NCBI GenBank assembly: GCA_963810095.1
Contig: CAWEMM010000013.1
Coordinates: forward strand, 1 to 64,000
Origin: an uncultured Chloroflexia bacterium
GTDB taxonomy: Bacteria; Chloroflexota; Anaerolineae; CG2-30-64-16
Direction of reading: 5' to 3'
DNA length: 64,000 nucleotides
Shown here: positions 18,264 through 61,651 of the stretch, in pieces
Numbering within the stretch: the first letter of the stretch is position 1
Layout of the letters: every line of letters begins with the position of its first letter
The notes under the pieces: generated by a model
What the model was told of the DNA's origin: nothing
Seen by the model: only the letters and a program-made list of their open reading frames with translations
Database searches by the model: none
Translations under genes and position numbers: made by a program

Positions 18264-19651
18264 ATGGCGGTCGAGGTCTATATCCCGAAGTACGGCCAGA
18301 CGGTCGAAGAAGTCAAGATCGTCCAGTGGTTTGTCGAGGACGGCGCGACGGTCAAAAAAGGACAGGAGCTGCTGGAGATCGAGACCGATAAGACGACCTT
18401 CTTTGTCGAGTCCGAGGCGGCCGGCGTGATCCATTGCGGCCCGTACAAGGCGGGCGACACCGTCGCGGTCCTGGAAGTCGTCGCGGTCGTCGGCAAGGCC
18501 GAAGACAAGTTCGTCGCTCACAAGGTGGGCGAGGAACCGGCGGTGGCGGAAGAGACCTTCGGGGTCTCCGAGACCCCGAAGGACTTGTCGGAGCCCTCGG
18601 AGGACTTGTCGGAGACCTCGGAGGTCTTCGTCTCTCCCCGCGCGCGTAAGCTGGCCGAGGCGCGCGGGGTCGACATAAGGCAGATCGCGCCCACGGGCGG
18701 CGGCGGCGTGCGGGTGGCCGAGCGCGACGTGCTCGCGTACCTGGCGTCTGCGCCCAAGGCCACGCCTCTCGCCGAGAAGTTGGCCGCGGAAACCGGCGTC
18801 AACCTGCGCACCGTCGCGGGCACCGGTCCCGGCGGCAAGATCACGCGCGAGGATGTGCTGGCCGCGGGGAGCGTCACGCCGCACCTGCGGTGGCGACCGA
18901 GACCCCGAAGGTTGCGGAGGTCGCCCCGCCCGCGGCGCTGCCCGTCGCGGATGTCGCCGAGCGGATCCCGCTCAAGGGCGTGCGCGCGATCATTGCGGAC
19001 CGGATGGGGACGAGCGTCCATACGACCGCCCGCGTCACCTTGGTCAGCGAGGTCGACGCGACCGAGTTTGTGGCCATGCGCGAGCGGCTGAAGGCGAAGG
19101 TGTCGGAAGCCTGGGGCTTCGCGCCGGGGTACAACGATCTGCTCGCGCTCATCGTCGCGAAGGCGCTGCGCAAGTTTCCCTACATGAACGCCCGCCTCGC
19201 GCCCGACGCGGTCGAGCTGATGGCGCACGTCAACATGGGCATGGCGGTCGACACGGAGAAGGGGCTCCTGGTGCCGGTCATTCGTGATGCGGACGCGAAG
19301 TCTCTGCAGGAGTTCGGGTCGACTTTCCGAGCGCTGGTGGACCGGGCGCGCAAGGGCCGCTCCTTGCCCGACGACCTGACCGGCGGCACGTTCACCATCA
19401 CGAATCTCGGCATGTATGACATCGACGCCTTCACGCCCGTGATCAACCTGCCCGAGGCCGCGATCCTGGGCGTGGGGCGCATCACCCCCAAGTGGATGTA
19501 CAAGCCCGAGAGTCCGAGTGCACCCGTGCCGTGCCAGATGCTGACGCTCAGCCTGGTGTTCGATCATCGCCTCGTCGACGGTGCGCCGGCCGCCCGCTTC
19601 CTCCAGTGGATCAAGGGCGTGATCGAAGAGCCGTACCTGATGGTGGCGTAG
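18264..19651 (+). CDS. Dihydrolipoamide acyltransferase E2 (apparent frameshift near 18885)
   Basis: Lipoyl ETDK, two E3-binding repeats (GTGPGGKITREDV), catalytic DHRLVDG in the second frame. Confidence 0.9.
18552..18628 (+). repeat. Family B repeat embedded in frame in the E2 linker
   Basis: GAGACCTTCGGGGTCTCCGAGACCCCGAAGG plus 21-nt tandem derivatives encoding ETFGVSETPKDLSEPSEDLSETSEV. Confidence 0.75.
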
Positions 19652-21555: not shown

Positions 21556-21928
21556 TAGATATCCTCCTATCACACGGCGATAGCGCGAAATATCTGCCCG
21601 CGTTCGCTATCCTGCCTATCATACACGCCAACCGGAGCCGGCGCCAAGATTCGCAGGAGCGCGGGGCGTCCGTGCACCCTCGCGCAGGTTAGGCTGTTTC
21701 GGATTTGGGCGTTCTCGCTACAGGACGACTCAGTTTCGCGTAACTTGCGTGAGTGCCGGGTGTTGTGAAATAATGAACGTCCTGAGCGGCGGGTGCGCCA
21801 GCACTGCCCTTCGCCGCTCACATCTCCCGTGCCACCACTGGCTTCTCGATGTGTGACCATGTCGTCCACAGGGGCGCCGATCGCCTCAGCAGTTGGTTCG
21901 CGAGTCACCCAATACGAGGAGCATTCCC

Positions 21929-23839
21929 ATGGAACACCCCGCAGACTGGCGGAAGTTCAACCCGCCCCCGGATGCCCGCGCCATCTTCGAACGCTGCCCC
22001 CGCCTCACCGTCGCCGGCAGCGTTGCCCACCTTGTGGAACTGGCCACGGGGCGCAACGGCCACAAAGAGTGTTACGAGGTCGTCTACGATATTCCGGGCC
22101 AGGGTGCGCAGGTCGAGGCGACCGTGGTACGGGTGCGGAACGGCGTGGCGGTGAACTACAGCGAGCCCTACATGCGGCGGCGCGACCCCGACTGCATGCT
22201 CGTCGCCGACGACCTGCCGACGGACAAGGAGACTTTCATCCAGCGTTACGGCGTTCCGTTCGACCGTGTGCGCGAGGAAGCGTTGGATTGGCTCGCAACG
22301 CAGGAACTGCTCGTGTTCGCGCTGTATGCGGGCCAGGCCGACATGAGCACCGACACGCTCGTCGTCGCTCCAGCCAACGCCGGCTTCTTCGCCCTGGGTC
22401 TCGCCATGTTGCAGGGCATTATCCCATACGACGAGCTGCCCCCGCACTTCTCGCCCAGCGCGGTGATCTACGTCGCGCCGCCCTTCCGGCAGACCCACTT
22501 CGCCGGCAAGCAGGTCGTGGTTCACAACCGGCAGCCCGGCCTGCACGAGATGTTCTCGTTCAACCTTTACCCCGGCCCCAGCGCCAAGAAGGGCATCTAT
22601 GGCGTTCTGATCGCGCTGGGCGAGCGGCAGGGTTGGGTGGCGGCGCACTGCTCGACCGTGCAGGTGGTCACACCTTATGATAACGTCGTGACCTTGATGC
22701 ACGAGGGCGCGAGCGGCAGCGGCAAGAGCGAGATGCTGGAGCCCGCGCATCGGGAGCCGGACGGTCGCCTGCTGTTGGGGGAAAACCTGCTGACCGGCGA
22801 GAAGCGTTACCTCGAGATCCCGCGTTCGTGCGAGCTACATCCGGTCACCGACGATATTGCGCTGTGCGAGTCCTGCGTCGCCAACGCGCTCCCTGCGCCC
22901 AACGGCAAGCTGCGGGTGCGCGACGCCGAGGATGCCTGGTTCGTCCGTGTCAATCACATCGAACATTACGGCACCGACGTGCAGCTCGAGCGACTGACCG
23001 CGGAGCCGCCCGTGCCACTGCTGTTCCTCAACATCGACGCGGCGCCGGGCAGCCGGGCGATGATCTGGGAGCACATCGAGGACAAGCCGGGGAAGCGCTG
23101 CCCCAATCCCCGGGTAGTCATCCCCCGCCACGTCGTGCCAAACGTGGTCGAGGGGACCGTCTCGGTCGACATCCGCTCGCTCGGCGTGCGCTGCCCGCCC
23201 TGTACCAGCGAGAGCCCAAGCTACGGGATCATCGGCCTCTTCCACCTGCTCCCGCCCGCGCTCGCATGGCTCTGGCGGCTGGTTGCGCCCCGGGGCCATG
23301 ACAACCCGAGTGTGATTACGGGCAGTACCGGCATCGCCAGCGCCATGGAGAGCGAGGGCGTGGGCTCGTACTGGCCTTTCGCGACCGGCCGCCGGGTTAC
23401 CCAGGCCAACCTGCTGCTCGACCAGTTTGTAAGCAGCCCTCGCACCCGGTACATCCTGACTCCTAACCAGCACATCGGGGCCTGGCGGGTGGGCTTTATG
23501 CCACAGTGGGTTGCCCGAGAGTACCTGGCCCGCCGCGGCAGCGCCAAGTTCCGGGCGGACCAGATCGAGGCGGCTCGCTGTTCGCTCCTGGGCCACGTGC
23601 CGCAGCAGCTCCACGTGGAGGGCCGCAGCGTCCCCACCCGGATGCTACACGTGAACGCACAGCCAGAGGTGGGCGAGGCGGCGTACGATGCGGGCGCCGA
23701 GCAGCTCTATGCGCTCTTCACCGAATGCCTGCACGAGTTCGGCGAGCCCGACCTCGCGCCGCTTGGCCGCCAGATCATCGAGTGCTGCCTCGATCGGGGC
23801 ACGGCCGACGATTACCGGGGCCTGATTCATGCGGAGTAG
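21929..23839 (+). CDS. DUF4914 family protein (PEP-carboxykinase-like fold)
   Basis: GAGGAG RBS; SAKKG, HCS, P-loop GASGSGKS, DD and CPNPR. Confidence 0.8.
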   Translation: MEHPADWRKFNPPPDARAIFERCPRLTVAGSVAHLVELATGRNGHKECYEVVYDIPGQGAQVEATVVRVRNGVAVNYSEPYMRRRDPDCMLVADDLPTDKETFIQRYGVPFDRVREEALDWLATQELLVFALYAGQADMSTDTLVVAPANAGFFALGLAMLQGIIPYDELPPHFSPSAVIYVAPPFRQTHFAGKQVVVHNRQPGLHEMFSFNLYPGPSAKKGIYGVLIALGERQGWVAAHCSTVQVVTPYDNVVTLMHEGASGSGKSEMLEPAHREPDGRLLLGENLLTGEKRYLEIPRSCELHPVTDDIALCESCVANALPAPNGKLRVRDAEDAWFVRVNHIEHYGTDVQLERLTAEPPVPLLFLNIDAAPGSRAMIWEHIEDKPGKRCPNPRVVIPRHVVPNVVEGTVSVDIRSLGVRCPPCTSESPSYGIIGLFHLLPPALAWLWRLVAPRGHDNPSVITGSTGIASAMESEGVGSYWPFATGRRVTQANLLLDQFVSSPRTRYILTPNQHIGAWRVGFMPQWVAREYLARRGSAKFRADQIEAARCSLLGHVPQQLHVEGRSVPTRMLHVNAQPEVGEAAYDAGAEQLYALFTECLHEFGEPDLAPLGRQIIECCLDRGTADDYRGLIHAE

Positions 23840-30218: not shown

Positions 30219-31118
30219 TTAGCCGGGGCTGCCGCCCTGCATGGCTAGGGCAATGGCCCCTAGCACGCCGGCGCGCCGGCCCAGACCCGCGCGGCGGATA
30301 TAGTCTTCGAGCCCCGGCTTGAGCCAGGGCGACGCGATGTAGCCGTTGAGCGCGCGTTCCGTTTCCCGGCGGATGCGATCGAGCAGATGCTGCTGCTCGA
30401 GTACCCCTCCGCCTAGGATGATCCCTTGCGGCGCGACCGTGCAGGTGAGGTTAGAAAGCGCCAGCCCGAGGTAGCGGGCTTCAAGGTCCCAGGCAGGGTG
30501 ATCGGGTGGCAAGGTTTCTGCGGGCCGGCCCCACCGTTTCGCAAGTGCGGGACCCGCCGCCAGCCCTTCCAGGCAGTCGCCATGATAGGGGCAGGCACCG
30601 GGAAACGGATCGGCCGCGAGGTCATGCGGGAGGTACATGTGCCCGATCTCCGGGTGCTGCAGCCCGTGCACCGGGCCGCCCCGGCAGAGCAGTCCGCCGC
30701 CGATACCCGTGCCGACCGTGATGTAAACCAGCGGATCGCGGCCGCGGCCCGCACCCCACAAGCTCTCGGCCAGCGCGGCCGCGTTGACATCGGTGTCCAT
30801 GTAGACCGGGATGTCAAGTGCCTCGCGCAGCGTCCCCAGCACGTCGACGCGCGACCAGCCCGCCTTCGGTGTCGTCGTAATGAAGCCGAAGGTGCTTGAC
30901 TGTGGGTCGAGGTCGAGTGGGCCGAAAGATGCCACGCCCAGCGATTGCAGCGGCTTCCCAAGTGCGGCCTTGCGGAAGAAATCAAGCGCCCGCCCGAGCG
31001 TCTCCAGGGGCGTGGTGGTCGGAAAACTGGTCTCGGCCAACACTTCGTCCGGTCCGCTTGCCACCGCGCAGACGAACTTGGTTCCCCCCGCTTCGATCCC
31101 TCCGTACAGCGTTGCCAT
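30219..31118 (-). CDS. ROK family fructokinase
   Basis: GGIEAGGTK, DTDVN, GTGIGGG, HPEIGH and CPYHGDCLEG. Confidence 0.9.
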   Translation of the reverse strand: MATLYGGIEAGGTKFVCAVASGPDEVLAETSFPTTTPLETLGRALDFFRKAALGKPLQSLGVASFGPLDLDPQSSTFGFITTTPKAGWSRVDVLGTLREALDIPVYMDTDVNAAALAESLWGAGRGRDPLVYITVGTGIGGGLLCRGGPVHGLQHPEIGHMYLPHDLAADPFPGACPYHGDCLEGLAAGPALAKRWGRPAETLPPDHPAWDLEARYLGLALSNLTCTVAPQGIILGGGVLEQQHLLDRIRRETERALNGYIASPWLKPGLEDYIRRAGLGRRAGVLGAIALAMQGGSPG

Positions 31119-31332
31119 GGTCGCTCCTGATCGCATGCCTTGTGCCAAGCCTCGGCAGCGATTATAGCGCAAAGTGCGGATTCCGCATGGATCAAGCGCA
31201 GCTTTTGTGACGGGCCGACCACGCACGGCTGTCTCAGGTCCCGGCGCTCCGTGCCCCGAAGATCGCATTGCGTCAATTGGCCGGGGGTGCTACACTTGTG
31301 CCATACTTGATCCTGGTTGGGGAGGGGCGGTT

Positions 31333-31728
31333 GTGCAGCACCTGCGTATATCGTTGCTCGTGATGCTCTTGGTCCTCGTGTCTTGCGCAGGGCAGCCCGC
31401 CGCCGGGCCGGCTGCGCCAATCCCCGCCGCCACGACCACCGCGACCCCTGGTCCACGTCTCTATGAGTTCTTCTCGCCCCTCTGAAGCACCTGCCGAGAG
31501 GTGCTGCCCACCGTGCGGGGGCTGGAGAAGGAGTACGCGGGGCGAATCACGTTCGTGCGCGTGAACGTGCTTGACGACGACAACATCGCACTCATCAAGC
31601 AGTTCGGCTTCAGCGCGACCCCCGAGCTCTACCTGGTCGACCGTGCGGGTAAGGTGGTGCGTTTTTGGAATGAGGAGGTGAGCGCGGACGAGCTGCGCGC
31701 CGCCTTCGAGCAGGTCTTGAGACCCTGA
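31333..31728 (+). CDS. Thioredoxin-like lipoprotein with in-frame UGA (U-S-T-C), probable selenoprotein
   Basis: GGAGG RBS + GTG; lipobox LVSC; YEFFSPL-TGA(31483)-STC continues in frame into a Trx fold (FVRVNV...ATPELYLVD..G.VV). Confidence 0.8.
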
Positions 31729-31836
31729 GAGCAACTGTAAGGGGCGAACGCTCCGCCCGCCGGGCGGCACTTCGAAAGTGCTTGGCACCTCACGCAAGCT
31801 CATTTTGCGACAGGTTGAGATATTGGGAGGACAGCG

Positions 31837-32223
31837 ATGGACGATCGACTCGAGCGCAACAAGCAGGCGGTGATGGCGTTCTACGATCTCATGTTTAACC
31901 AGTGCCAGCCCGCCGAGGCGATGGCAGCCTACGCCGGAGCGGTCTACATCCAGCATAACCCTGCCGTTCCCGACGGCAAGGCGGCCTTCATCGAGTACTT
32001 CACGCGCATGGCGCAGGAATACCCGGGTAAGCGCGTCAACTTCAAGCGGGCGATCGCCGAGGGCGACTATGTCGTGCTCCACTGCTACCAGCAATGGCCG
32101 GGCGACTCGGATTGGGCGGGCATCGACATCTTCCGCCTCGACGAAGACGGCAAGGTCGTGGAACATTGGGACGTCCTCCAGCGCGTCCCCGACCAGTCGG
32201 CCAACGGCAATACCATGTTCTAA
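31837..32223 (+). CDS. SnoaL/NTF2-like protein
   Basis: [16 protein letters not shown] and DIFRL...VVEHWDV. Confidence 0.88.
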
Positions 32224-32422
32224 AATAACCGCAAAGTGGAAAGCAGTCACATAGGGCGAGCATTGGCTCGCCCTATGTGAGTGTGCGCAACCCCGTCTCG
32301 CGATTAGTTTCGTCCTGCCCACGTTTGCGGTGGTTGCGCAGCGCTCCGGCGCCTATGCCCTGCAAACGCTCCTGCGTCACCCGAGCTCCAACTCCCAGCC
32401 GCGCAATTCAGGGCCTAAATCG

Positions 32423-32645: not shown

Positions 32646-33959
32646 ATGGACCGGACAGTTGTAGCCTTGTTTGACGACGTGGATACCGCGCAACGGGCAT
32701 TGGAAGAGTTGCTGAGCAACGGCTTCGATCGTAACGACGTCAGCGTCGTTCGCACCAACGCGAAGGGCGACTACGCGACAGGATCGACGACAGACACCAG
32801 CGCGGCTGACGCCAGCGGCGCAGCCGCGGGTGCGGGCATTGGCGCCGCACTCGGCGGCATCGCCGGCCTGGTGATCGGCCTCGGCGTGCTGGCGATTCCC
32901 GGCCTGGGCCCCGTGATTGCTGCGGGCCCGCTGGCCACGACGCTGGCAGGCGCAGGGATTGGCGCGGCGGCCGGTGGTATCATCGGCGCCCTGACCGATG
33001 TGGGCATTCCCGAGAATGAGGCAGGATACTACGCCGAGGGCATTCGCCGCGGCGGCACCCTCCTGACGGTGCGCGCGAGCGACGACAAAGTAACCCGCGC
33101 GACGCAGATCCTGAACCGCTTCTCGCCCGTGGACATCAACCAGCGGGCGACTGAGTGGCGTTCGTCGGGTTGGAGCGAGTTCGATTCGAATGCCAAGCCC
33201 TACGAATCCGGCACGGGTGCAACGACTGCCAGCGGCAGCTATTCGGGCACGAGCGGCTCCTACGCCGGAAGCGGCGCTGGGATGAGCGGCTCCTATTCGG
33301 GCGCCGGCATGGGCGCTACGGGCAGCGCCTATTCCAGCCGCTTCGAGGATTTCGACAACGACTTCCGCAGCGACTGGCAGCGGCGCTACTCGACTTCTGG
33401 TTACGGCTACGAGCGCTACCAGCCCGCCTATCGCTACGGCTACGAGGCGCGCAATCGCTACGAGGGCCGCAACTGGAACGACGTCGAGTCTGACCTGCGT
33501 TCAGACTGGCAGCGCAACCATCCCGGCGATGCGTGGGAAGACTTCAAAGACTCGGTCAAGACCGGCTGGGAGCGCTTCAAGAGCAACGTGAGTGGCGCAG
33601 CGAGCGACGTGCGCCAAGGTGCACAGGAAACGAGCTACGACGCACAGCGGTCCTTTGACCGCACCACCAGCGACATGAGCCGGAGCTTCGACCGCTACGA
33701 CCGCGACTTCCGGAGCGATTACGACCGGTCATTCCGCTCGAGCGGCTACGGCTACGAGCGGTACCAGCCCGCCTACCAGTACGGTTACGGGCTGGCGACG
33801 GAGAACCGCTACCGGGGGCGGAACTGGAACGATATCGAGGCCGACGCCCGGCGGGACTGGGAAACGCGGCACCCGAGCGACGCGTGGGATGACTTCAAGG
33901 ACGCGGTTCAGCATGCCTGGCAGCGCGTCCGTGCCGACGTCAAAGACGCGGTCGACTGA
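32646..33959 (+). CDS. General-stress (YflT/17M-like) Gly-zipper protein with two C-terminal Trp/Tyr-rich repeats, paralog 1
   Basis: TVVALFD, Gly-zipper AIPGLGPVIAAGP, YAEGIRRGG; 2x YERYQPAY.YGY...W.D.E...R.DW...HP.DAW.DFKD. Confidence 0.8.
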   Translation: MDRTVVALFDDVDTAQRALEELLSNGFDRNDVSVVRTNAKGDYATGSTTDTSAADASGAAAGAGIGAALGGIAGLVIGLGVLAIPGLGPVIAAGPLATTLAGAGIGAAAGGIIGALTDVGIPENEAGYYAEGIRRGGTLLTVRASDDKVTRATQILNRFSPVDINQRATEWRSSGWSEFDSNAKPYESGTGATTASGSYSGTSGSYAGSGAGMSGSYSGAGMGATGSAYSSRFEDFDNDFRSDWQRRYSTSGYGYERYQPAYRYGYEARNRYEGRNWNDVESDLRSDWQRNHPGDAWEDFKDSVKTGWERFKSNVSGAASDVRQGAQETSYDAQRSFDRTTSDMSRSFDRYDRDFRSDYDRSFRSSGYGYERYQPAYQYGYGLATENRYRGRNWNDIEADARRDWETRHPSDAWDDFKDAVQHAWQRVRADVKDAVD

Positions 33960-34441: not shown

Positions 34442-35095
34442 TCACCGGATCATGTAGAAGAGGCCAAACAGGAACAGCCAGATCACATCGACAAAGTGCC
34501 AGTACAGCCCCATCTGCTCCACCCGCGTATAGCGGGGGCCGAGAAATGAACCCCGGAAGCCGCGGACCGCCACGATCAGCACCAACACGATCCCGATAAT
34601 CATGTGCGCTGCATGCACGCCCGTCATGGCAAAGTAGAGAAAGAAAAACAGCGCCTGCACGTTTGCGTTCGGCGCCCGTGTGTAATCGTAGTTGAACCCC
34701 GGTGCCAGCCCCTCGTGCCAGTGCTGCCAGTACTCGAATCCCTTGATGCCCAGAAACACCATGCCCAGCGCCGCCGTGGCGAGCAGGAAGAACACCAGCA
34801 CCTTGCGCTGCCCCAGCTGCGCACCCCGTACCGCCAACACCATCATCAGGCTGCTGAAGATCAGCACGAACGTGTTGATCGAGCCGGCCACCACGTTTTG
34901 GTGCTGCGCGGCCTCGGCGAACGCCTCAGGATAAATCGTGCGGAAGATCAGGTAGGCCAGGAACATTCCGCCAAAGAACATGACCTCCGTCGCCAGGAAC
35001 ACCCACATCCCCAGCAGATTGGCGGTATGCTGCTGCTCCCACGTCTCAAAATGATGATCGACGTGTCCTGCGCCGCTGTCATAGGGCTTTTCCAC
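34442..35095 (-). CDS. ctaE: Cytochrome c oxidase subunit III
   Basis: GMWVFLATEVMFF, TGVHAAHM and YWHFVD. Confidence 0.93.
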   Translation of the reverse strand: MEKPYDSGAGHVDHHFETWEQQHTANLLGMWVFLATEVMFFGGMFLAYLIFRTIYPEAFAEAAQHQNVVAGSINTFVLIFSSLMMVLAVRGAQLGQRKVLVFFLLATAALGMVFLGIKGFEYWQHWHEGLAPGFNYDYTRAPNANVQALFFFLYFAMTGVHAAHMIIGIVLVLIVAVRGFRGSFLGPRYTRVEQMGLYWHFVDVIWLFLFGLFYMIR

Positions 35096-35106
35096 AACAA
35101 CTCCTT

Positions 35107-35201
35107 AATGGTCCACAGATTGACCTGATCGAGCCGATCCACCTGATCTCTCTGGGGTCGATCAAGAAGATCAGTTCGATCAGTCCGATCTGCGTCCTAT
35201 T
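35107..35201. repeat. Family A palindromic element, copy 4 (overlaps the ctaD stop codon)
   Basis: CACAGATTGACCTGATCGAGCCGATCCACCTGATC...GATCAGTTCGATCAGTCCGATCTGCGTCCTAT. Confidence 0.8.
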
Positions 35202-36825
35202 CAGCTTCCGCCAAGATCACATCCTTGATCGCGTCGTAATCGTACGCCTCGTGTGTCACGCACGGAATCTCGTAGAAGTTCTCGGGCGGGGGCGGGGAGG
35301 CCGTAGTCCACTCCAGCCCCGTCGCGCCCCACGGATTGTTCGGTGCGCGCTTGCCCCGCCAGATCGATGGGATCAGGTAGAACAGCGGCATGACGTAGCC
35401 CACGATCAACACCAGCGACCCCAGGCTCGACAGGATGTTCAGCAGTTGGTACTCGGGCGGGTACACCGCATAGCGCCGTGGCATGCCCTGGATGCCCAGG
35501 ATGAACTGGGGGAAGAAGGTCAGGTTGAACCCGACGAACGTGATGATGGCCGCGATTTGCCCCATACGCTCCGGGTACATGCGCCCCGTGATCTTCGGCC
35601 ACCAGTAATGGATGCCGCCGATATAGGCCATCACCATGCCCCCCACCATGATGTAGTGGAAGTGCGCGATGACGAAGTAGGTGTCGTGGACGTGCGCGTC
35701 AAACGCGAGCGCGGCGAGCCACAGTCCCGTCAGGCCCCCGATCACGAACAGGCCGATGAAGCCGATCATGTAGAGCATCGGCGCTTTGAACGAGATGGAG
35801 CCGTCCCACATCGTCAGGCTCCAGTTGAAGACCTTCACCGCGGATGGGATCGCCACCGCGAAGCTCAGGCCCGAGAAGACCAGCGAGGCATGGATCGATT
35901 GGCCCGCGACAAACATGTGGTGGCCCCATACCAGGAAGCCGAAGATCGCGATCGCGAGGCTCGAACCGGCGATGAACCGGTAGCCGAAGGGCCGGTTGCG
36001 CGTGAAGGTGGAGATCACCTCGCTTACCACGCCCATCCCCGGCAGAATCATGATGTAGACCGCGGGGTGCGAGTAGAACCAGAACAGGTGTTGGAACAGG
36101 ATTGGGTCGCCACCCAGCGCGGGATCGAAGATGCCCACGTGCAGCACCCGCTCGGCGATCACCAGCAGCAGCGTGATGGCCAGCACCGGCGTTGCCAGCA
36201 CCAGGATCAGGCTCGTGGCGTACAGCGACCAGACGAACAGCGGCAGCCGGCCCCACGTCATGCCGGGCGCGCGCATCTTGTGCGTCGTCACGATGAAGTT
36301 CATACCGGTCAGGATGGATGAAAACCCGACGATAAAGATGCCCAGGGTCGTCCCCAGCACGTGGGTGTTGCTGCCGCTCGTGCTGTAGGGCGTGTAGAAC
36401 GTCCAGCCCGTATCGACGCCGCCGCTGAGCACCACGTAGAGCAGGAACACGACGCCGAACATGTAGATGTACCAGCTCAGGAGGTTCAGCTTGGGGAACG
36501 CCACGTCGCGCGCACCCAGCATCAAGGGCAGCAGGAAGTTGCCCAACACCGACGGGATGGACGGGATCAGGAAGAACCAGACCATCGTCACCCCGTGCAT
36601 GGTGAAGATCTTGTTGTACGTCGCGGGGTCGACCAGCCACGACACGGGCGAGACCAACTCCGCGCGGATCACCCCCGCGAACGCGCCGCCGACAAAGAAC
36701 ATCAGCGTCACCGAGATCATGTACAGGATCCCAATGCGTTTGTGGTCCGTCGTCAGCAGCCACGATTTGACCGAACTCGCCACGTTCAGATAGGTCGGAC
36801 GCCTATCGAGGGCCAATGCACTCAT
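35197..36825 (-). CDS. ctaD: Cytochrome c oxidase subunit I, A2-type
   Basis: [16 protein letters not shown] (YS motif of A2 enzymes), WGHHM and AHFHY. Confidence 0.96.
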
Positions 36826-36874
36826 GATCGCTCCTTAGAATCCGCTCGCCTCACGCCAGGTCACTTACGGTTCG

Positions 36875-37960
36875 TCAACTCCCAGGTGTCCGGGTCGCGG
36901 CCGGTGTGGCGCCCACGCCACCCGTTGCCCCGCCCGGAGCGCTTGTCCCCACCGGCACAGTTGCGCCCGGCGCGGCGGCGCCCCCGCCCCCGTCACCCAG
37001 CGACTGGATGTACGTAACCAGCGCAAACACCTCTTCGGTGCTTAGCCGGCCCTGATACGAGGGCATGATCGGTTGGAAGCCCTTGACCACTTGCGCCGAA
37101 GGGTTCAGGATCGACTCCCGGATGTAGTTCTCGTCGGCAACCACCGTCTGGCCGTTCGCCAACTCGACCTGTTTTCCGAACACCCCGTTCAGCGACGGCG
37201 CCGGCGCGCCTGCGGCGCCCGTGTGACATCCGATGCATCCGGACTGCTGGAACAGCTGCGCCCCCGCAGCAGCCGTCGTCGCACCGCCGCCAGCTCCGCC
37301 CGCACCGGGTGTACCCCCGGCGCCTGCAGCGGGCGCGCCTCCTCCGCCGCTCCACGCCTGGAAGTCGGCCTCTGACATGACGATGATATCGCCCACCATT
37401 ACCGCATGCCCGGTGCCGCAATACTGCGAGCAGAAGAGCCGGTAGGTGCCCACTTCGGTCGGCCGGAACCACTGGGTCGTATACCGGCCCGGCACCACGT
37501 CGGTGTGGATGCGGAACGCGGGCACGTAGAAATCATGGATGACGTCTTCAGACGTCATGATCAACTTGTAGTCCTTGTTCACCTGCAGGTGAACCGCGTT
37601 GATCTCTTTCTGGCCGTTCTGGTGCTGCGCCTTCCACATCCACATGCGCCCCGTAATGAACACCGGCTCCGCATTGGGCGGCGGATTGAACATGTTGATG
37701 TACGAGCCGCCGGCCCAGAGAAACATGCCCAGCGACAGCACGCCCAGAAACGCCATCCCGCCCCACTCGAGCTTGGTGTTGCCGCCGCTGCCCGTGCCAA
37801 AGTGATCGGGCGAGCGGCGCCGGTAGCGCACCGCGGCCACGATGATGATCGCGGCCACGAGGATCGTGAAGAACGCGCTCAGCAGGAGCAGCACCAGGAA
37901 AATCCTGTCGACGGCTTGCGCCGACGTCGATGCCTGCGGTGGGAGGAACGGTATCTTCAT
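36875..37960 (-). CDS. ctaC: Cytochrome c oxidase subunit II with fused cytochrome c (caa3)
   Basis: DVIH, CuA motif CSQYCGTGHAVM and C-terminal CIGCH...MP. Confidence 0.95.
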   Translation of the reverse strand: MKIPFLPPQASTSAQAVDRIFLVLLLLSAFFTILVAAIIIVAAVRYRRRSPDHFGTGSGGNTKLEWGGMAFLGVLSLGMFLWAGGSYINMFNPPPNAEPVFITGRMWMWKAQHQNGQKEINAVHLQVNKDYKLIMTSEDVIHDFYVPAFRIHTDVVPGRYTTQWFRPTEVGTYRLFCSQYCGTGHAVMVGDIIVMSEADFQAWSGGGGAPAAGAGGTPGAGGAGGGATTAAAGAQLFQQSGCIGCHTGAAGAPAPSLNGVFGKQVELANGQTVVADENYIRESILNPSAQVVKGFQPIMPSYQGRLSTEEVFALVTYIQSLGDGGGGAAAPGATVPVGTSAPGGATGGVGATPAATRTPGS

Positions 37961-41293: not shown

Positions 41294-42008
41294 AGACCCT
41301 CCCCGGCGCCAGGGATTCGAGGAACTGCCTGGTCGTCTGGTCCGGCGCCTGCAGCGTCTCGACCGGCGCCTGGGCATAGAACTTGGGATCGTCGGCCTGG
41401 ATCAGCAGGAAGAACCGGTTCGTCGTTGCCCGGCTAAACTCCGGCACGTTGAAGACGGGATGATACGGCCGCGGGAAGCCGTTCAAGAGGATCATGGAGA
41501 TCAGCGCGGTGAACGCCGCGAACAGGATCACCAGCTCATACGTGATGGGCAGGTAGTACGGCCAGGAGTTGTACGGCCGGCCGCCGATGTTCAGGTACGG
41601 GTACCAACGCGACATAGACCAGAGCTGCAGCCCGTATCCGACCAGCCCGCCCGTGATTCCGCCCAGCAGTGTGAGCAGCGCGATCAGGTTGAACCGGCCC
41701 AGCCAGTCGGCCACGCCGCGCCAGTCGCGGCGGCGCAGTGCGGCCGTCAGCTCGGCCCGGTCGTGCCGGTTGCGCAGGTCGACGGATGGCGCCACCAGCT
41801 CGGGCAGCCCCTCGACCGGATAGGGCGAGTACGCGTCCATACGGGTGTAGCCCGCGGCGCGCGCCGCCCGGGCCGCCTCAAGCAAGGAGTCCTCATCCAG
41901 GAATTCGGCCAGCAGCCCGTAGCGGCCCTCCTGGAACTCCGCCTCGATGGGCTGGTGGTGGCGTCGCCCCCGGCGGGGTCCGATCACATCGCCCGGATGC
42001 GCAGTCAT
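41277..42008 (-). CDS. actD: Alternative complex III subunit ActD (DUF3341)
   Basis: GLLAEF, DAYSPYPVEG, IGGRP, PITYELVIL and YHPVF. Confidence 0.88.
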   Translation of the reverse strand: MTAHPGDVIGPRRGRRHHQPIEAEFQEGRYGLLAEFLDEDSLLEAARAARAAGYTRMDAYSPYPVEGLPELVAPSVDLRNRHDRAELTAALRRRDWRGVADWLGRFNLIALLTLLGGITGGLVGYGLQLWSMSRWYPYLNIGGRPYNSWPYYLPITYELVILFAAFTALISMILLNGFPRPYHPVFNVPEFSRATTNRFFLLIQADDPKFYAQAPVETLQAPDQTTRQFLESLAPGRVYDAAR

Positions 42009-43477
42009 GGCGCCACCTCCTCGCCCGCGAACGCAGTCGGGGCAGGCCTCGCGGCGGGCGCGCTCCCGTCGCCTCCGCCCGTCTCCCTCGAGCGAAGCTC
42101 GCGCGTCGCGGCCTTCTTCTCAATCAGTTCCCGCATTTCGTAGTTTGCGACCACGGGCAGGATCCTCAGGAACAGGAACATCATCAGGAAGAACAAGCCC
42201 AGCGTGCCGGCAAACGTCGCATAGTCCCAGATGGTCGGGACAAATACGCCCCATTTGCTGGGCAGGTAAGCTCGGGCCAGGTTCGTCGTGATCAGCACGT
42301 AGCGTTCCATCCACATGCCGAAGAGGACCCCGATCGAGATGAAGAACACGAGCACCCGGTTCTGGCGGAAACGCCGGAACCACAGGAGCTGCGGGAAGAT
42401 CACGTTGAAGGCGAGCTGCAGCCAGTAGAACAGCGCGAACGAGCCGGTAAAGCGGGTCATAATGGCTTGGATGTCGAAGATGTTGCCGCTGTACATCCCC
42501 ATGAAGTTCTCGAACAGGTAGCCGTACGCGACGATCAGGCCGCTGGCCAGCATGACCTTGGCCGCGTTGTCGACGTGCTGCAGGGTGATCATGTTCTCGA
42601 TGTGCAGCAGCTTGCGCAGCGGGATGATCAGCACGAGCACCATGGCAAAGCCCGAGTAGATCGCGCCGGCGACGAAATAAGGCGGGTAGATCGTGTTGTG
42701 CCAGCCCGGCACGATGGCCGCCGCGAAGTCGAAGCTCACGATGGTGTGGACGGACACCACCAGCGCGGTCACGAGCGCCGCCACCAGGTAGTACGCCCGG
42801 TGGAACCGGCGCCAGTGCTGGGCCGAGCCCCGCCAGCCGAGCGACGCGATGCCGTAGATGCGCTTCACCCACTTGTTGGTCGCCCGGTCACGGAACGTCG
42901 CCAGGTCGGGGATCATCCCGACGAGCCAGAACACCGTCGACACGCTTGCGTACGTCAGCACGGCGAACGCATCCCACACGAGCGGGCTGCGGAACTGCGG
43001 CGGCAGCGCCATCGTGTTCGGATACGGCAGCAGCCAGTAGAAGAACCACGGCCGGCCGAGGTGCAGGATCGGGAAAAGCGCGGCCTGGGCGACGGCAAAC
43101 ACGGTCATCGCCTCGGCCAGCCGGTTGATGGACGTGCGCCACTCTTGCCGCAGCAGGAGCAGGATCGCGGAAATCAACGTCCCAGCGTGGCCGATGCCGA
43201 TCCACCAGACGAAATTGGTGATCGCAAAGCCCCAGGCGACCGGCACCTCGATGCCCCAGATGCCGACGCCCCGGGCGAAGAGCAGGGTGATGGCCAGGAG
43301 GAACACCAGGACGCCCAGGAACGCGGCGAAAATGCCCGTGATCCACCAGCGGGGCGTTCGGCGCGTCAGGACAATGTCCGAGATTTGCTCGGTCACCCCT
43401 TCCATCGTCTGTCCGGGCGCCAGCACCGGGATCGGCTCGATCGCCGCGGGATTCGCCGTCGATACGTCTGTCGTCAT
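42005..43477 (-). CDS. actC: Alternative complex III quinol-oxidising subunit ActC (NrfD family)
   Basis: NFVWWIGIGHAGTLISAIL, HLGRPW, FRSPLVWD and SVHTIVSFDF. Confidence 0.95.
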   Translation of the reverse strand: MTTDVSTANPAAIEPIPVLAPGQTMEGVTEQISDIVLTRRTPRWWITGIFAAFLGVLVFLLAITLLFARGVGIWGIEVPVAWGFAITNFVWWIGIGHAGTLISAILLLLRQEWRTSINRLAEAMTVFAVAQAALFPILHLGRPWFFYWLLPYPNTMALPPQFRSPLVWDAFAVLTYASVSTVFWLVGMIPDLATFRDRATNKWVKRIYGIASLGWRGSAQHWRRFHRAYYLVAALVTALVVSVHTIVSFDFAAAIVPGWHNTIYPPYFVAGAIYSGFAMVLVLIIPLRKLLHIENMITLQHVDNAAKVMLASGLIVAYGYLFENFMGMYSGNIFDIQAIMTRFTGSFALFYWLQLAFNVIFPQLLWFRRFRQNRVLVFFISIGVLFGMWMERYVLITTNLARAYLPSKWGVFVPTIWDYATFAGTLGLFFLMMFLFLRILPVVANYEMRELIEKKAATRELRSRETGGGDGSAPAARPAPTAFAGEEVAP

Positions 43478-43494
43478 TCTAGCTCTACCTTTTC

Positions 43495-43570
43495 GCCACG
43501 AATTGCACGAATTTCACGAACTCTCGCAAACCTTGACCGCCAAATTCGTAGCATTCGTCAAATTCGTGGC
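43495..43570. repeat. 9-nt-period palindromic element (CACGAAT variant) between actB and actC
   Basis: GCCACGAAT-TGCACGAAT-TTCACGAAC...ATTCGTAGC-ATTCGTCAA-ATTCGTGGC. Confidence 0.8.
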
Positions 43571-43585
43571 GGCCTCGGCTCACGT

Positions 43586-46500
43586 TCACGTCCCGATCTC
43601 CGGGTTCGGGTTCCGCAGCGCGGCCAGGTACGTCGTGCGCGGCTGGGTGTTCAACTCGGCCAGCAGCGCGTAGTTGAGCGGCAGCGACTTCCACGTCGAC
43701 ACCTCCGCGGCCTGATCGTTCAGGTTGCCGAACGAAATCGCGTGGGTCGGGCAGGCCGCTGCGCAGGCCGGGATCACCTCGCCGTCCCGAATCCCGCGGC
43801 CCTCGGTCTCGGCGGTCCCCTGGGCGTCTCGGATGCGCTGCACGCAGTACGTGCACTTCTCCATCACGCCGCGGTTGCGCACCGTCACGTCGGGGTTCTG
43901 CACCATCTTGAGCGTAGGCTCTTCCCGGACCTGGTCCGTATAGGAGAAGAAGTTGAACCGGCGCACCTTGTACGGGCAGTTGTTCGAGCAGTAACGGGTG
44001 CCCACGCAGCGGTTGTAGACCATGTCGTTGAGGCCGTCTTCGCTGTGGGCCGTCGCGGCCACGGGACACACCGCCTCGCACGGCGCGGTCTCGCACTGCA
44101 TACACGGCACCGGTTGGAAGACGGTCTGCGGGTCGTCCACGTTGGTGCCTTCGTAGTACCGGTCCACCCGCAGCCAGTGCATCTCGCGCTGGCGGTAGAC
44201 GCCTTCCTTGCCGACCGTCGGGATGTTGTTCTCGGCCTGGCACGCCACCACGCACGCGTTGCAGCCCACGCAGGCCGTCAGGTCGATCGCCATGCCCCAC
44301 TTGTAGTTCGGGTATTCCCACTGCGGGTACAGGCTGATCGCCTCGTGCGGCGTGGCGGCGAAGTTCGGGTTTTCCTGGTATTCGGTCAGGGTGCCGGTCT
44401 TGACGAGGTCGCGGCCCTCCATCTGCCAGTGGAACTGCGTCGTCGCCAGCTGGTACTTGCCGCCGACCTTCACGACCTGCGCGCCCCCTGCGAACCAGGG
44501 CGCCGCTGCAGTGCGCAGGGCATAGGCGTTGAAGCCGGTGCCGCTGCCGAGAGGGCTCCCGTTGCCCATTGGCCTGGGGCTCCGGTCGATCCCGCCGACC
44601 GAGCCGGCGCTCGACGAGGCGACACTGCCGGTCCCCGTGTCCGAGCGCCCGTAGCCCAGATGAACCGTGATCGCGCCGTCGACGTGCCCCGGCCAGATCC
44701 ACACCCCGCCGCGCACAGTCCGCCCGCCGTACCTTACCTCGACCAGGTCCTCCAGCCCGACGCCCAACTGCTCGGCCGTGGCCGGGCTCATCATCACCGC
44801 ATTGTCCCAGGTCAGCAGGTTGAGCGGCTTGGGCAGCTCTTGCAGCCAGGCATTGTTGCCGTAGCGGCCGTCCCAGATGGCCGGGTCCGGCGCGGAAGTT
44901 GATCTCGAGGTCCTGGCCCCTGGGCTGCACTGTCACGCCGTTCAGCTCTGTCGCGATGGCGGTTGTGCTGACCGTTGGCGTGACGGGCGGCAGGGCGGAG
45001 TTGGGGATCACGCCCCGGTTCAACGCGTCGCGCCACCACGTCTCGAAGTCGCCTGCCCCGGCTGCTGCGCCCTGCCAGTACCCGCGCACCTGGTCGTAGG
45101 ATTTGCCCTCGGTCCCGCCAAACAGGGTCAGGATTTCGTGCGGCGAGCGCGAGTCGGGCCACAGCGGCTCGATGAGCGGCTGCACGATGCTGGCGGTGCC
45201 GTCGAAAGCGCGCGCGTCGCTCCAGGCTTCCAGGAAGTGTGTCTGCGGCACGTGCCACGTGCTGGCCATCGCCGTCTCGTCCGCATACAGCCCCACGTGG
45301 ATGCTCGTCCCAACCTTCTTCAAGAGCCGCAGCAAAGTCCAGGTCGGCCGGTGCGGTGTAGACCGGGTTCGCGCCCAGGATGAGCAGGAACTGCACCGCG
45401 CCGGCCTGCATTTCGTTGACGAGCGCGCTGAGGTTCGCGGTCAGGTCGGCGGGGCGAGCGACGACCGGCTCGGTGTAGAGCACGGTTTTGCCCACGTTTC
45501 CCAGCGCGGCGTTCATGGCGTGCGCCAGCGCGTGGACGACGGGCGCCTGGTGGTTGCCTGCGATGACGATGCTCGCCCCGGCATGGCCCTGCAGATCCCG
45601 CGCCAGGGCGTCCACAAACTGCGGCGTGACGCCGGGCGGCAAGTTCTCTGTGGCCGGTATGCCCTGCACCCCGATACGCGCTGCCACCGCTTGGGCGACG
45701 GTCAGCACCTCCCGCGAGAGCACCCGCAGCTTGTGATCCGCCTTCGCGCCCGTCAGCGTGGGCGTGCCTTCTACCGCGTACAGGCGATTCATGGAGGCGC
45801 CGGTGGCGCTCTTGACCCGCCGCCGGTTGATGAAGTCGCGGGAGTATCGCAGCGTGTCCGCATGGCTCTGGAGAAAATCGGAGTCCAGGCTGAGGATCGT
45901 GTCGGCCCGGTCGAAGCGATAGACGGTGTTCACGTCGCGACCGAAGGCCATCCGCGCGCCCAGGTCGGCCTGGTCGTTCGACGCCGCCTCCCACTGCAGC
46001 CACGCCGCGTTGGGCAGGGCCTTCTGAATGGACGCCATCTGCGCAATCAAGGTGGGCGAAGAGGTGACCTCCGTCAGGATGCGGATGCCCTGACCACCGT
46101 TCGCGCTCGCGGCGGCCAACGCGCTGGCGAATCCACTGGCGAAGTCCGCGTAGGTGGCGGTCTGTCCGCTGTGAAGGACGGCCGAGGAGCGGGCCGGGTC
46201 GTAGAGGCTCGAGTATCTCGGCCTGGGCAAAGGTGTCCGTCGACCCCAGTGAAGCCGGGTGGTCCGGATTGCCCTCGATCTTGGTCGGCCGGCCCTCGTT
46301 GCTCTCCACCAGCAGGCCCATCGCGTACCCCGCATGGATCATGGCGGTCGTGTAGAACAGCGATTTGCCGGGCACCTGGTTCGGGTCGGGCGACTTGACG
46401 TACGGGACGATCTTGCGGGCGGGGACGTTGACGCAGCCGGCGAGCCCCGCCAGGGCCAGGCTGGCGCCCAGCAGCTTGAAGAAGCTGCGGCGGCTCATGC

Positions 46501-46687
46501 CGTGCGACCCGCCGCCTTGGGAAAGGCTCTCGTCCCAAACGGAAGCCTGCCGCGGAAACTCGCGGTGCAGGTACTCCTGGAACTCGTCCGTCTCGGCCAG
46601 CGCTTCGAGCCCCTGCCAATACTGCCGCCCGCTCAGCCCTGCCAGCTTGCGCCTTACGGCTGCAATGTCAATCCGACCCTCGCTCAT
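43586..46687 (-). CDS. actB: Alternative complex III subunit ActB, molybdopterin-like + Fe-S domains (apparent frameshifts near 46210, 45325, 44890)
   Basis: Tat SRRSFFK and lipobox LAGC, GRPTKIEGNPDHP; C-terminal CVGCNACVVAC, CMQCETAPC, CVGTRYCSNNCPY and EKCTYC spread over four frame segments. Confidence 0.9.
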
Positions 46688-46783
46688 GCCTCATCCTCAC
46701 TACCGGGCGCCTCCTACGTAGGCGCCGGCGCCACTACGAAATGCAGTTCGACTTCTTCGGGCCCGACCGGACTCGTTCACCCA

Positions 46784-47458
46784 CTACCGGTGACAGGTCG
46801 AGCAGCTCGTCAGTGTCCGTGCGTCCAGCACCTGGTACTCTTTTACCAACTGGGGCCCCAGCACCGCCTGCGGCTGCGGCGGCTGCCAGCCCATCGTGAA
46901 CACCTGATCCTTCGGCCGGATGTACTTCTCGGGCGCCCGATGGCAGTCCAGGCACCACTCCATCTGCATGCTGGTTGCCTTGTATGTCTGCTGCATCTGG
47001 TCGACACGTCCGTGGCAGCTTTCGCACCCGATGCCCTTCTGAATGTGCGGGCTGTGGTTGAAGTACACGAACTGCGGCAGGTTATAAACGCGGTTCCAGT
47101 GGAGCGGTTGGTTGTTGTTCCAGCTGTCGCGCACGGGCTGGAGGATGGCCGCGTTGGTCCAGATCTGGCTGTGGCAGTTCATGCAGGTCTGCGTGGGGGG
47201 GATGCCTGCAAAGCTGGAGTATTCGACCGACGTGTGACAGTAGCGGCAGCCGATGCCCAAGCCGCCGACGTGATGCTGGTGGCTGAACTGGACGGGCTGG
47301 AGCACCGTCTGGTTGCGCCGGGTGTAGTAGTCCGAGCGCACAAACAGGTAACCGGCAATCGCGGCGCCTGCCAGGAGCAGGATCACAAGCGCGATGCTCG
47401 CGCGCGCAATCGTATTGCTGCTGCGGCCAAAGACCTGAGTAGTCCGGGACGGGACCAC
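46784..47458 (-). CDS. actA: Alternative complex III pentaheme cytochrome c ActA
   Basis: N-terminal TM and five CxxCH motifs (CRYCH, CMNCH, CESCH, CLDCH, CSTCH). Confidence 0.93.
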   Translation of the reverse strand: MVPSRTTQVFGRSSNTIARASIALVILLLAGAAIAGYLFVRSDYYTRRNQTVLQPVQFSHQHHVGGLGIGCRYCHTSVEYSSFAGIPPTQTCMNCHSQIWTNAAILQPVRDSWNNNQPLHWNRVYNLPQFVYFNHSPHIQKGIGCESCHGRVDQMQQTYKATSMQMEWCLDCHRAPEKYIRPKDQVFTMGWQPPQPQAVLGPQLVKEYQVLDARTLTSCSTCHR

Positions 47459-48869: not shown

Positions 48870-48897
48870 TAGACATCTCCCCACATGATGCTATAAT
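48870..48897 (+). promoter_or_regulatory. Sigma70-type promoter of the radical SAM operon
   Basis: TAGACA-N16-TATAAT with extended -10 TGn. Confidence 0.7.
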
Positions 48898-48987
48898 GCG
48901 GCCTCGGCCTGACCGGCCTAAACCAACCGCGGGTTCAAGTCCCGCCGCGGTGTGCGAAGGCAACCGCGTAACAGGAGAGTGTATCCG

Positions 48988-60559: not shown

Positions 60560-60602
60560 CCCTGATCACCCGACGGGAAGTACTGGACGAAGGGAAGTAT
60601 TG

Positions 60603-61651
60603 ATGAAGTTATTGCCGGTTAGTCAGCAGGTTGTCGTCCTGTTCGGCGCATCGAGCGGGATCGGGCGGGAGACCGCGCTGCAGTTTGGGGCCCGCGGGGC
60701 AAAGGTTGTCGTTGCCGCTCGGCGGAAGGACGCACTGGAGTCGCTCGCCGAGGAGATCCGCCTGGCAGGAGGCGTCTGCCTACCTGTTGTGGCCGAAGCG
60801 ACGGACTTTGCGCAGGTCAAGGCGGTTGCCGAAAATGCCGCGAAGCATTTCGGCCGCATCGACACGTGGGTGCAGTTGGCCGCAGTGTCGCTCTATGCGC
60901 CCTTCGAGCAGCACGAACCCGAGGAGTTCCACCGGATTATCGACGTGAACCTGGTCGGCGCGGCCTATGCGGCGCGGGCCGCACTCCCGCACCTCAAGGC
61001 TTCGGGCGGCGGCGCCTTGATCATGGTCACGTCCATCGAGTCGGTGCAGGCAATCCCGTTCCATGCCGCCTATGCCGCCTCCAAGCACGGGTTACGGGCG
61101 ATGGCCGAGGTTATCCGCATGGAGCTGGCGGCCGAGGGCGCACCCGTGAGCGTCACCAATGTCATGCCCGCATCGATCGACACGCCGTTCTTCGAGGTGG
61201 CCAAGACAAAACTCGGCGTCAAGCCGCGCGGCGTGCCTCCGGTCTATGAACCCGACGTGGTGGCGCGCACGATCCTGTTTGCGGCGGAGCACCCTTCCGC
61301 GACCTGGCTGCGGGCGGAGCGGGCAAGAGCTTCATCTGGCTCAAACGTTTGTCGCCTTCGGCCGCAGACCGCTTGATGGCGTGGGCCGGGTTCACGATGC
61401 AGAAGACAGACGAGCAGAAGGGTCCGGACGCGCCGAACAACCTGTTCGAGCCGGTCGAAGGCGGCCCGGTAGGCCCACAGGGCTCGCTGAGTAAGGAAGC
61501 GCGTTCGTGGAGCGTATACACGTGGTGGGAAACCCATCCGGTGGCGCACTGGGCCGGCCGGGTGCTGGCGGCGGCCGGGCTGGGCGCGCTGGTATTCCGG
61601 GTTTGGGGCTCGAAGACAATGCGGGGTTGGAGCGCGAAGCCGCGCAGGTGA
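60603..61651 (+). CDS. SDR oxidoreductase with membrane-anchor tail (apparent frameshift near 61300)
   Basis: GASSGIG, YAASK, PASIDTPFF; tail PNNLFEP...SWSVYT in the next frame. Confidence 0.87.

Follow-up and report, generated by a model that had tools for sequence, protein, structure and literature searches.

Introduction

Selenoproteins with a thioredoxin fold and a U-x-x-C redox center, in which U is selenocysteine (Sec), have long been known. According to the tables of two reviews, a Sec-containing thioredoxin (PF00085, UxxC) is among the experimentally studied prokaryotic selenoproteins. These tables also list a thiol:disulfide interchange protein (PF13098), a thiol-disulfide isomerase-like protein (PF13905) and DsbA-like, DsbG-like and redoxin/TlpA-family forms (PMC13188914, PMC9312934). 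Here, we describe a gene that, as far as these listings go, works like them. It is located at positions 31333 to 31728 of a 64,000-nucleotide stretch of DNA from an uncultured Chloroflexia bacterium (contig CAWEMM010000013.1 of assembly GCA_963810095.1), hereafter called the window. An initial annotation, made from the sequence alone, had suggested that this gene encodes a hidden selenoprotein. Our analysis strongly supports the selenoprotein prediction, i.e., a small, putatively membrane-anchored thioredoxin-like protein with Sec in place of an active-site Cys. Its gene is mis-split, as is routine for gene callers faced with this ordinary kind of selenoprotein.

In bacteria, the stem-loop that directs Sec insertion, the Sec insertion sequence (SECIS), lies within the reading frame. 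The bacterial SECIS (bSECIS) model, as given in PMC13188914, has a loop of 3 to 9 nt on a stem of 4 to 16 bp and an energy not above -7.5 kcal/mol. Its first two loop positions include a G, which G or U usually follows, and 16 to 37 nt separate the UGA from the loop. According to the literature, Sec is used within the phylum Chloroflexota: three selenoprotein families were reported from Chloroflexi as of 2006 (PMC1794560), two Dehalococcoidia genomes are credited with 49 and 46 selenoprotein genes (PMC13326102), and a tRNA-Sec of the 8/4 type has been reported in Chloroflexi (PMC5389517). Sec use is also described as not being limited to anaerobes (PMC5029168).

Results and Discussion

A thioredoxin-like gene interrupted by a single in-frame UGA

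On its plus strand, the window contains two open reading frames (ORFs), 31174-31485 and 31501-31728, that share one frame and are separated solely by the TGA at 31483-31485. Reading through this codon yields FFSPL-U-STC, with the TGA exactly at the first Cys position of the thioredoxin motif, as the initial annotation had described. The whole coding sequence (31333-31728) comprises 131 codons, including one Sec codon, followed by a TGA stop (31726-31728), and its orthologs align over the full length. Since a Shine-Dalgarno-like GGAGG, read from the sequence at 31321-31325, lies 7 nt ahead of GTG 31333, this GTG is the likely start codon. The G+C content at third codon positions (GC3) was 0.78 before and 0.88 after the internal TGA, and 0.49 in the 159 nt upstream of GTG 31333. 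An in-frame TAA follows three codons past the terminal TGA. A consensus scan of 31050-31900 gave neither a sigma-70-like promoter nor a terminator.

The UGA is shared by all 11 orthologs and faces Cys in full-length relatives

Ten orthologous loci (L001 to L010), confirmed among the 36 pattern matches of a genome scan, were compared with the window gene (n = 11). All ten belong to Chloroflexota metagenome-assembled genomes, labeled Anaerolineales, Anaerolinea, Anaerolineaceae, "Chloroflexia" and Ardenticatenaceae, and these relatives by themselves would place the organism of the window in that phylum. The codon for residue 51 (31483-31485), the first position of U-S-T-C, was TGA in 11 of 11 orthologs and TAA, TAG or a Cys codon in none. 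The dipeptide within the motif is S-T in the window and P-T, S-A, A-S or A-A in the orthologs. Conservation extends to the residues ahead of the TGA (E-F-Y/F-S-P), which line up with those of full-length Cys-containing relatives.

We then looked at how this family is represented in protein databases. A word-indexed search gave 11 matches among 59 candidates, all of 72 to 88 aa and covering 52 to 56% of the query. All 11 start directly after U-x-x-C, as is expected of gene callers that stop at an in-frame TGA. An exhaustive HMMER search, covering 1.84 billion representatives, returned 1855 matches at an E value of 1e-3 or below, the best 150 of which were inspected. Twelve of these 150 were C-terminal fragments of 70 to 84 aa. 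They were retrieved together with 14 full-length proteins (26 representatives), and CxxC was found at the U position in all 14 full-length relatives, 13 of which were aligned. The best full-length relatives among these 150 matches did not exceed 42% identity. No Cys ortholog was found above about 42% identity, and every close public entry was a truncated fragment.

In the resulting alignment of 24 rows (A3; 11 Sec and 13 Cys forms, with U stored as C), the only invariant columns are the U column and that of the second Cys, corresponding to the predicted resolving Cys54 (TGC, 31492-31494); a second TGA present in L010 is stored as C in the latter. The initial annotation had suggested looking for Cys/UGA homolog pairs, and, judging by these sequences, such pairs exist: the close orthologs all have UGA and the full-length relatives Cys, the close clade being publicly present only as truncated stubs. 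In a maximum-likelihood tree of the domain, the window protein falls into a clade with L001 to L006 and one Cys form, P0018 (support 99/95), and L007 and L008 are placed with a Cys subfamily (support 80/87), so that well-supported branches force at least two Sec/Cys changes. Interleaved Sec and Cys forms are common in selenoprotein families.

The window also contains genes that seem to be split by frameshifts (60600-61376/61349-61651 and 48896-49957/49551-50936), and errors or decay therefore exist in this stretch. One might thus ask whether the TGA at 31483-31485 is a nonsense mutation or a sequencing or assembly error, the gene being a pseudogene or having a real Cys codon. This explanation is essentially refuted by the recurrence of TGA in the same column of 11 independent genomes, by coding-like GC3 and protein conservation on both sides of it, and by the truncated fragments found in many independent database clusters. 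The UGA is real, as the initial annotation had argued.

The most divergent ortholog, L010, which has a long branch and no cis-proline, harbors another TGA in the same frame, in place of the second Cys codon (L010:8755-8766, TGA-AGT-ACC-TGA, i.e., U-S-T-U). This second TGA lies 17 nt ahead of the loop of the hairpin described below, within the 16- to 37-nt range. L010 could represent a UxxU form decoded by means of one SECIS or a decaying gene.

A conserved stem-loop downstream of the UGA resembles a bacterial SECIS

We compared hairpins in the 93 nt around the UGA of the 11 genes, which align without gaps. RNAalifold found a single consensus helix, the stem-loop GCCCACCGTGCGGGGGC at 31506-31522 (arms 31506-31511 and 31517-31522), which is a candidate bacterial SECIS, i.e., a SelB-binding hairpin. 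In the window it consists of 6 pairs, a bulged A and a GUGC loop, and its equivalent in most orthologs has 6 pairs and a CGUGC loop. Sixty-five of the 66 cells of the stem were paired (98.5%), and two pairs showed compensatory changes: one is U-A, replaced by C-G in three sequences, and the other is A-U in seven sequences, G-U in two, G-C in one and an unpaired A.G in the window. Neither the observed pairing percentage nor the covariation score was reached by any of 500 shuffles, and partners slid against each other paired in only 7.6 to 51.5% of the cells.

Folded alone, the hairpin has an energy of -9.9 kcal/mol, and three ortholog hairpins range from -7.5 to -10.4 kcal/mol. Its loop contains G-U and starts 26 to 27 nt after the UGA, the spacing in the window being 27 nt. 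All limits of the bSECIS model, as published in the source cited above, accommodate these values, and the geometry is therefore canonical rather than unusual. The initial annotation had already pointed to a G+C-rich stem at 31506-31522, which is indeed present, but had based its proposal of a SECIS differing from the E. coli model on another hairpin.

This other hairpin, a perfect 7-bp AGCACCT/GCCGAG/AGGTGCT, is located immediately 3' of the UGA (31486-31505), over the codons for Ser-Thr-Cys-Arg-Glu-Val-Leu, and is present in the sequence as described. If it were the functional SECIS, its loop would lie only about 8 nt from the UGA, a noncanonical geometry. In its favor, the 48-nt stretch containing it folds at -21.8 kcal/mol, a value equaled by only 4 of 200 shuffles, and L001 forms the same stem with one G-U pair. 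However, the full stem appeared in the single-sequence folds of only 2 of the 11 genes, the window and L001, both of which have the Ser codon AGC that the stem depends on; the other orthologs have TCN or other residues. In the alignment (columns 19-25 with 32-38), 54.5% of its 77 cells are paired, a level matched by 436 of 500 shuffles, and sliding the partners by 1 to 3 columns still gives 36 to 51%. Perfect 7-bp hairpins with loops of 3 to 8 nt are as frequent in the window (52) as in 20 first-order Markov simulations (mean, 44; range, 28 to 67), so that the presence of this one alone means little. Moreover, in the E. coli system, a loop 8 to 13 nt past the A-site codon would sit inside the ribosomal mRNA channel. 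A SECIS function of the hairpin at 31486-31505 is thus very unlikely, and the hairpin is probably genome specific and incidental to the codons.

Weighing the evidence for Sec insertion

Taken as a whole, the evidence makes it very probable that this is a genuine Sec-encoding gene with the stem-loop at 31506-31522 as its SECIS. A number of observations weigh against this conclusion. Concerning the RNA, the two pairs with double changes were matched by 107 of 500 shuffles and the five further pair types by 388 of 500, and the covariation rests on 11 related sequences, whose kinship alone can beat shuffles without any structure. Single-sequence folding z-scores of 48-nt stretches were mostly insignificant (-2.45 to +0.64), and the minimum-energy fold of L004 does not include the stem-loop. 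The window stem itself is imperfect, with an A.G mismatch in the aligned register in place of which the fold uses a bulged A. A search of 31440-31600 with Rfam gave no SECIS family at an E value of 10 or below and only a chance small nucleolar RNA match. The stem also overlaps conserved codons (LP-x-V-x-GLE), and part of its conservation is therefore due to the protein.

Concerning the decoding machinery, selA, selB, selD and a gene for tRNA-Sec were not seen in the 64-kb window, and NCBIfam models found no SelA, SelB or SelD among the 143 ORFs of the 10 loci at an E value of 1e-40 or below. Nor did the loci share any gene neighbor, and no CcdA/DsbD was found in the window, for which reason partner and substrate are guesses. 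SelA, SelB, SelD and CcdA/DsbD were absent from the NCBIfam matches of 52 window proteins (51 ORFs and the read-through protein) and from the Pfam matches of 30 window ORFs, and neither CcdA/DsbD nor cytochrome c maturation genes were found in the window or the 143 locus ORFs. ARAGORN reported no tRNA-Sec in the window or the 10 loci, a program that may miss the 8/4 type. At gathering thresholds, Rfam found only a tRNA-Glu over the window.

The contribution of protein conservation to the stem can be judged from codon choice. Within the stem, Pro is encoded by CCC in 10 of 10 cases, Gly by GGG in 11 of 11 and Val by GTG in 10 of 11, whereas conserved Pro and Gly positions outside the stem use three to four codons in the same genes. 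As this codon freezing is confined to the stem, protein conservation is mostly removed as an explanation. In addition, the Gly that GGG encodes is shared by all 11 Sec forms, as against only 2 of the 13 Cys forms, and it thus appears that the RNA rather than the protein fixes this Gly. On this basis, we consider the comparative support for the putative SECIS helix to be moderate, the sample being small.

Because Sec machinery was not seen in the window or the 10 loci, we also considered whether the UGA is decoded otherwise, either by near-cognate tRNAs that insert Trp or Cys or through reassignment of UGA in this lineage. We find this very improbable. Of the 11 orthologous genes, 8 have TGA as their terminal stop, as do many full-length genes of the window, for example those encoding a P450 (28819-30054) and cytochrome oxidase subunit II, so that UGA is an ordinary stop in these genomes. 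Furthermore, the site is that of the catalytic Cys of CxxC, the classic position of Sec/Cys exchange, and the orthologs retain, at a suitable distance, a hairpin that fits the SECIS model. Sec thus remains the preferred reading of the UGA.

The product is predicted to be a lipid-anchored thioredoxin

The first 18 codons (31333-31386) encode a putative lipoprotein signal peptide, with Arg5 in the n-region, a hydrophobic run and the lipobox L-V-S-C at residues 15 to 18 (31375-31386), in line with the initial annotation. Lipid modification is predicted at Cys18 (31384-31386), with which the mature protein would begin. This assignment is a match to the pattern [LVI][ASTVI][GAS]C, which was used in a slightly relaxed form to count orthologs; a lipobox was found in 9 of the 11 Sec orthologs and 8 of the 13 Cys relatives, L002 having I-S-T-C and L005 none. 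The signal is followed by a Pro/Ala/Thr-rich, presumably flexible tether (residues 19 to 41, 31387-31455), which has no secondary structure in the model described below and varies in length and sequence among orthologs.

The remaining residues, 42 to 131 (31456-31725), form a thioredoxin-fold domain according to Pfam, AlphaFold2 and Foldseek. Pfam Thioredoxin (PF00085) matched residues 42 to 124 across the UGA (E value of 1.9e-9; 37.9 bits against a cutoff of 23.5), which, together with the Cys in 13 of 13 aligned relatives, is in agreement with the UxxC thioredoxin-fold selenoprotein that the initial annotation had proposed. An AlphaFold2 model built with the 24-row alignment reached a mean predicted local distance difference test score (pLDDT) of 87.4 and a predicted template modeling score of 0.69. 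Averaged over blocks of 10 residues, the pLDDT was low, 62 to 73, for residues 1 to 40 and rose to 93 to 98 for residues 41 to 130. The modeled elements are E42-47, H52-67, E73-78, H82-91, E98-102, E108-112 and H118-129, i.e., beta-alpha-beta-alpha-beta-beta-alpha, and place Sec51 at the N terminus of helix 1 (52 to 67). Pro97 (31621-31623; T-P-E), before strand 3, occupies the cis-proline position of the thioredoxin fold; it is near invariant (90% or more) in A3, L010 being the sole Sec form of the 11 without it.

Foldseek against the PDB ranked classical thioredoxins first (2tir, 1v98, 1quw and 6zom), with template modeling (TM) scores of 0.7 to 0.86 (normalized to the target) and root mean square deviations of 1.4 to 2.5 A. 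For 1v98_A the TM score was 0.84 (target normalized) with 1.9 A over 92 columns, and 2tir had an E value of 8e-8. Likewise, 1v98_A was the best phmmer match in the PDB (E value of 7.1e-10), with TrxP, a periplasmic protein of Bacteroides fragilis, also among the matches.

None of the narrower models was reached. For the window protein, the NCBIfam thioredoxin equivalogs scored below their cutoffs (TIGR01068, 32.7 versus 96.8; NF047697, 37.6 versus 140; NF008229, 27 versus 125), as did the reductase models DsbE (18.9 versus 123), ResA (15.7 versus 170) and StoA (14 versus 210). The same was true of other Pfam families, namely, Thioredoxin_8 (23.2 versus 27), Thioredoxin_2 (15.4 versus 27), Thioredoxin_4 (14.9 versus 23.2) and Redoxin (14 versus 26.6). 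The curated thioredoxin-like selenoprotein families SaoT (NF040730) and TsoB (NF045694) did not match the window protein at an E value of 1 or below; the L007 protein scored 12.8 versus 65 and 15.2 versus 805 with these two models and 22.2 versus 230 with that of TlpA. By these profile scores, the window protein belongs to Pfam Thioredoxin and to none of the narrower curated families tested.

Both here and in the 11 close database entries, ORF callers annotate two products. One would be a short peptide, secreted or in the membrane, that ends at the TGA, and the other a protein of 75 residues with GTG 31501 as its start codon. That these are the true products is extremely unlikely. The model predicts one compact domain, of which the 75-residue protein would be missing strand 1, the beginning of helix 1 and the redox motif. 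In addition, the E-F-Y/F-S-P ahead of the TGA is conserved and aligns with full-length Cys relatives. We therefore keep to a single Sec-containing polypeptide below.

Proposed mechanism

We propose that the lipoprotein signal peptide directs the export of a 131-residue precursor and that lipid at Cys18 anchors the mature protein on the outside of the cytoplasmic membrane. About 23 residues of flexible tether would then lead to a minimal classical thioredoxin fold with the redox center Sec51-Ser-Thr-Cys54. During translation, UGA 31483-31485 would be decoded as Sec: with the ribosome at this codon, the hairpin at 31506-31522 would stand just outside the mRNA channel and recruit SelB-GTP-Sec-tRNA(Sec). 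At the terminal TGA, which has no SECIS-like element, termination would be normal.

As for the chemistry, the selenolate of Sec51 may attack disulfides or oxidized thiols of extracytoplasmic or envelope proteins, Cys54 may resolve the mixed selenylsulfide, and an electron shuttle in the membrane, of the CcdA/DsbD type, could reduce the Se-S bond again. That the protein acts as a reductase rather than an oxidase is a guess by analogy, based on the motif W-C-x-T-C of the Cys relatives, which we take to resemble that of reductive envelope thioredoxins.

Surroundings of the gene in the window

Two respiratory clusters are located in the window. One (34442-37960, -) encodes subunits III, I and II of an aa3-type cytochrome oxidase. 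The other (42005-47458, -) contains alternative complex III-like genes, including those for an NrfD-like membrane subunit, a TAT-variant molybdopterin oxidoreductase and a QrcA-like multiheme cytochrome. Judging from these genes, the organism is probably an aerobic respirer. Overlapping ORFs on both strands are found in the alternative complex III region (41738-46687).

The two split ORF pairs mentioned above match consecutive parts of a family. ORF 60600-61376 covers positions 3 to 234 of the SDR family PRK07109 and 61349-61651 positions 251 to 325; 48896-49957 carries a radical SAM N-terminal domain and 49551-50936 matches TIGR03960. These pairs and the overlapping ORFs of the alternative complex III region look like frameshifts or assembly indels, which matches a remark in the initial annotation that other errors in the window are indels. 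An antisense ORF of 349 codons (31273-32322, -) overlaps both the selenoprotein gene and a SnoaL-like gene (31837-32223). Its GC3 of 0.64 is low for this genome; it looks spurious, a product of high G+C content, and could mislead gene callers.

A crude scan for further UGA-interrupted genes in the window gave 24 candidates, including adjacent genes in the same frame and many short or overlapping ORFs. One of these, 18281-19567 (-), was rejected, as its translation looks like noncoding antisense. With tblastn, no paralogs of the Sec thioredoxin were found in the window or the 10 loci.

Other proteins drew our attention. The product of 32646-33959 (+; 437 residues) has a weak YflT (heat-induced stress protein) domain and matches no NCBIfam family. 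It contains a Gly/Ala-rich stretch that may be membrane embedded, as well as two long internal repeats (R-Y-x-G-R-N-W-N-D ... D-W) in which Arg, Asp, Trp and Tyr are abundant. A full-length DUF4914 protein of unknown function is encoded at 21893-23839 (+; Pfam E value of 7e-295). Finally, the dihydropteroate synthase gene at L003:13138-14028 (-), which adjoins folK, scored 403.7 bits with the NCBIfam Sul4 model, below the cutoff of 600 but above its score with the generic dihydropteroate synthase model. The likeliest reading is an ordinary folP gene on the chromosome, of the lineage related to Sul4.

Implications and comparison with known systems

A more far-reaching proposal, to which we give somewhat less than an even chance, is that the window protein belongs to a Chloroflexota-wide clade of lipid-anchored, extracytoplasmic seleno-thioredoxins of aerobic respirers, outside current catalogs and annotation models, in which Sec is obligatory and a SECIS located in helix 1 forces Gly63 (GGG). 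If true, this would point to selenium-dependent repair or maturation of the cell envelope. Apart from this proposal, the gene adds an exported selenoprotein, tethered to the membrane, to a phylum about whose envelope redox biology little is known, and it implies a selenium need in these organisms, apparently aerobic ones included. As to annotation, genes of this family are systematically broken at the Sec codon, and C-terminal stubs devoid of the active site make up all 11 close database proteins and 12 of the best 150 representative clusters. The gene is also a clean case of an RNA element limiting codon choice, and even one amino acid, within a protein helix. Our understanding of Sec decoding is left unchanged, since the element fits the standard bacterial model. 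A literature search found no description of the Chloroflexota lipoprotein form, which may already be counted under "thioredoxin."

With the E. coli fdhF-type SECIS and the bSECIS model as published, the stem-loop at 31506-31522 shares its location within the ORF, G-U in a small apical loop, the distance of 16 to 37 nt and a stability beyond the threshold. It differs from the fdhF-type element in that it is short (6 to 7 bp), matches no Rfam SECIS family and has no conserved lower helix, RNAalifold having given no conserved pairing below the 6-bp stem in the 11 genes. The fdhF element presumably also carries a bulged base, like the stem in the window.

ResA, CcmG/DsbE, TlpA, StoA and the B. fragilis TrxP (PDB 3hyp/3hxs), chains of which are among the sequence and fold matches of the window protein, are likewise membrane-tethered or periplasmic thioredoxin folds with a CxxC center, belonging to the reductive extracytoplasmic thioredoxins of monoderm and diderm bacteria. 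The motif of L007 and L008, W-U-P-T-C, recalls what we take to be the W-C-P-T-C motif of the CcmG type. Unlike ResA, DsbE and StoA, however, the window protein has Sec in place of Cys, its scores with their NCBIfam models are only 14 to 19 bits against cutoffs of 123 to 210, and none of the 11 loci shows a linkage to cytochrome c maturation.

The thiol:disulfide oxidoreductase selenoproteins, as described in the review tables, have a UxxC (or UGC) thioredoxin fold with Sec replacing the nucleophilic Cys, as in the window protein. We assume that these families act outside the cytoplasm. In contrast to them, only PF00085 passes its cutoff for the window protein, whose structural neighbors are plain thioredoxins rather than DsbA or TlpA folds with inserts.

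Another close system is the Sec-containing thioredoxin, with which, according to its published listing, the window protein has in common PF00085, the position of U-x-x-C, a SECIS within the ORF and a classical thioredoxin fold. Compared with that listed entry, the window protein is distinguished by a lipoprotein signal and a tether, which would make it extracytoplasmic.

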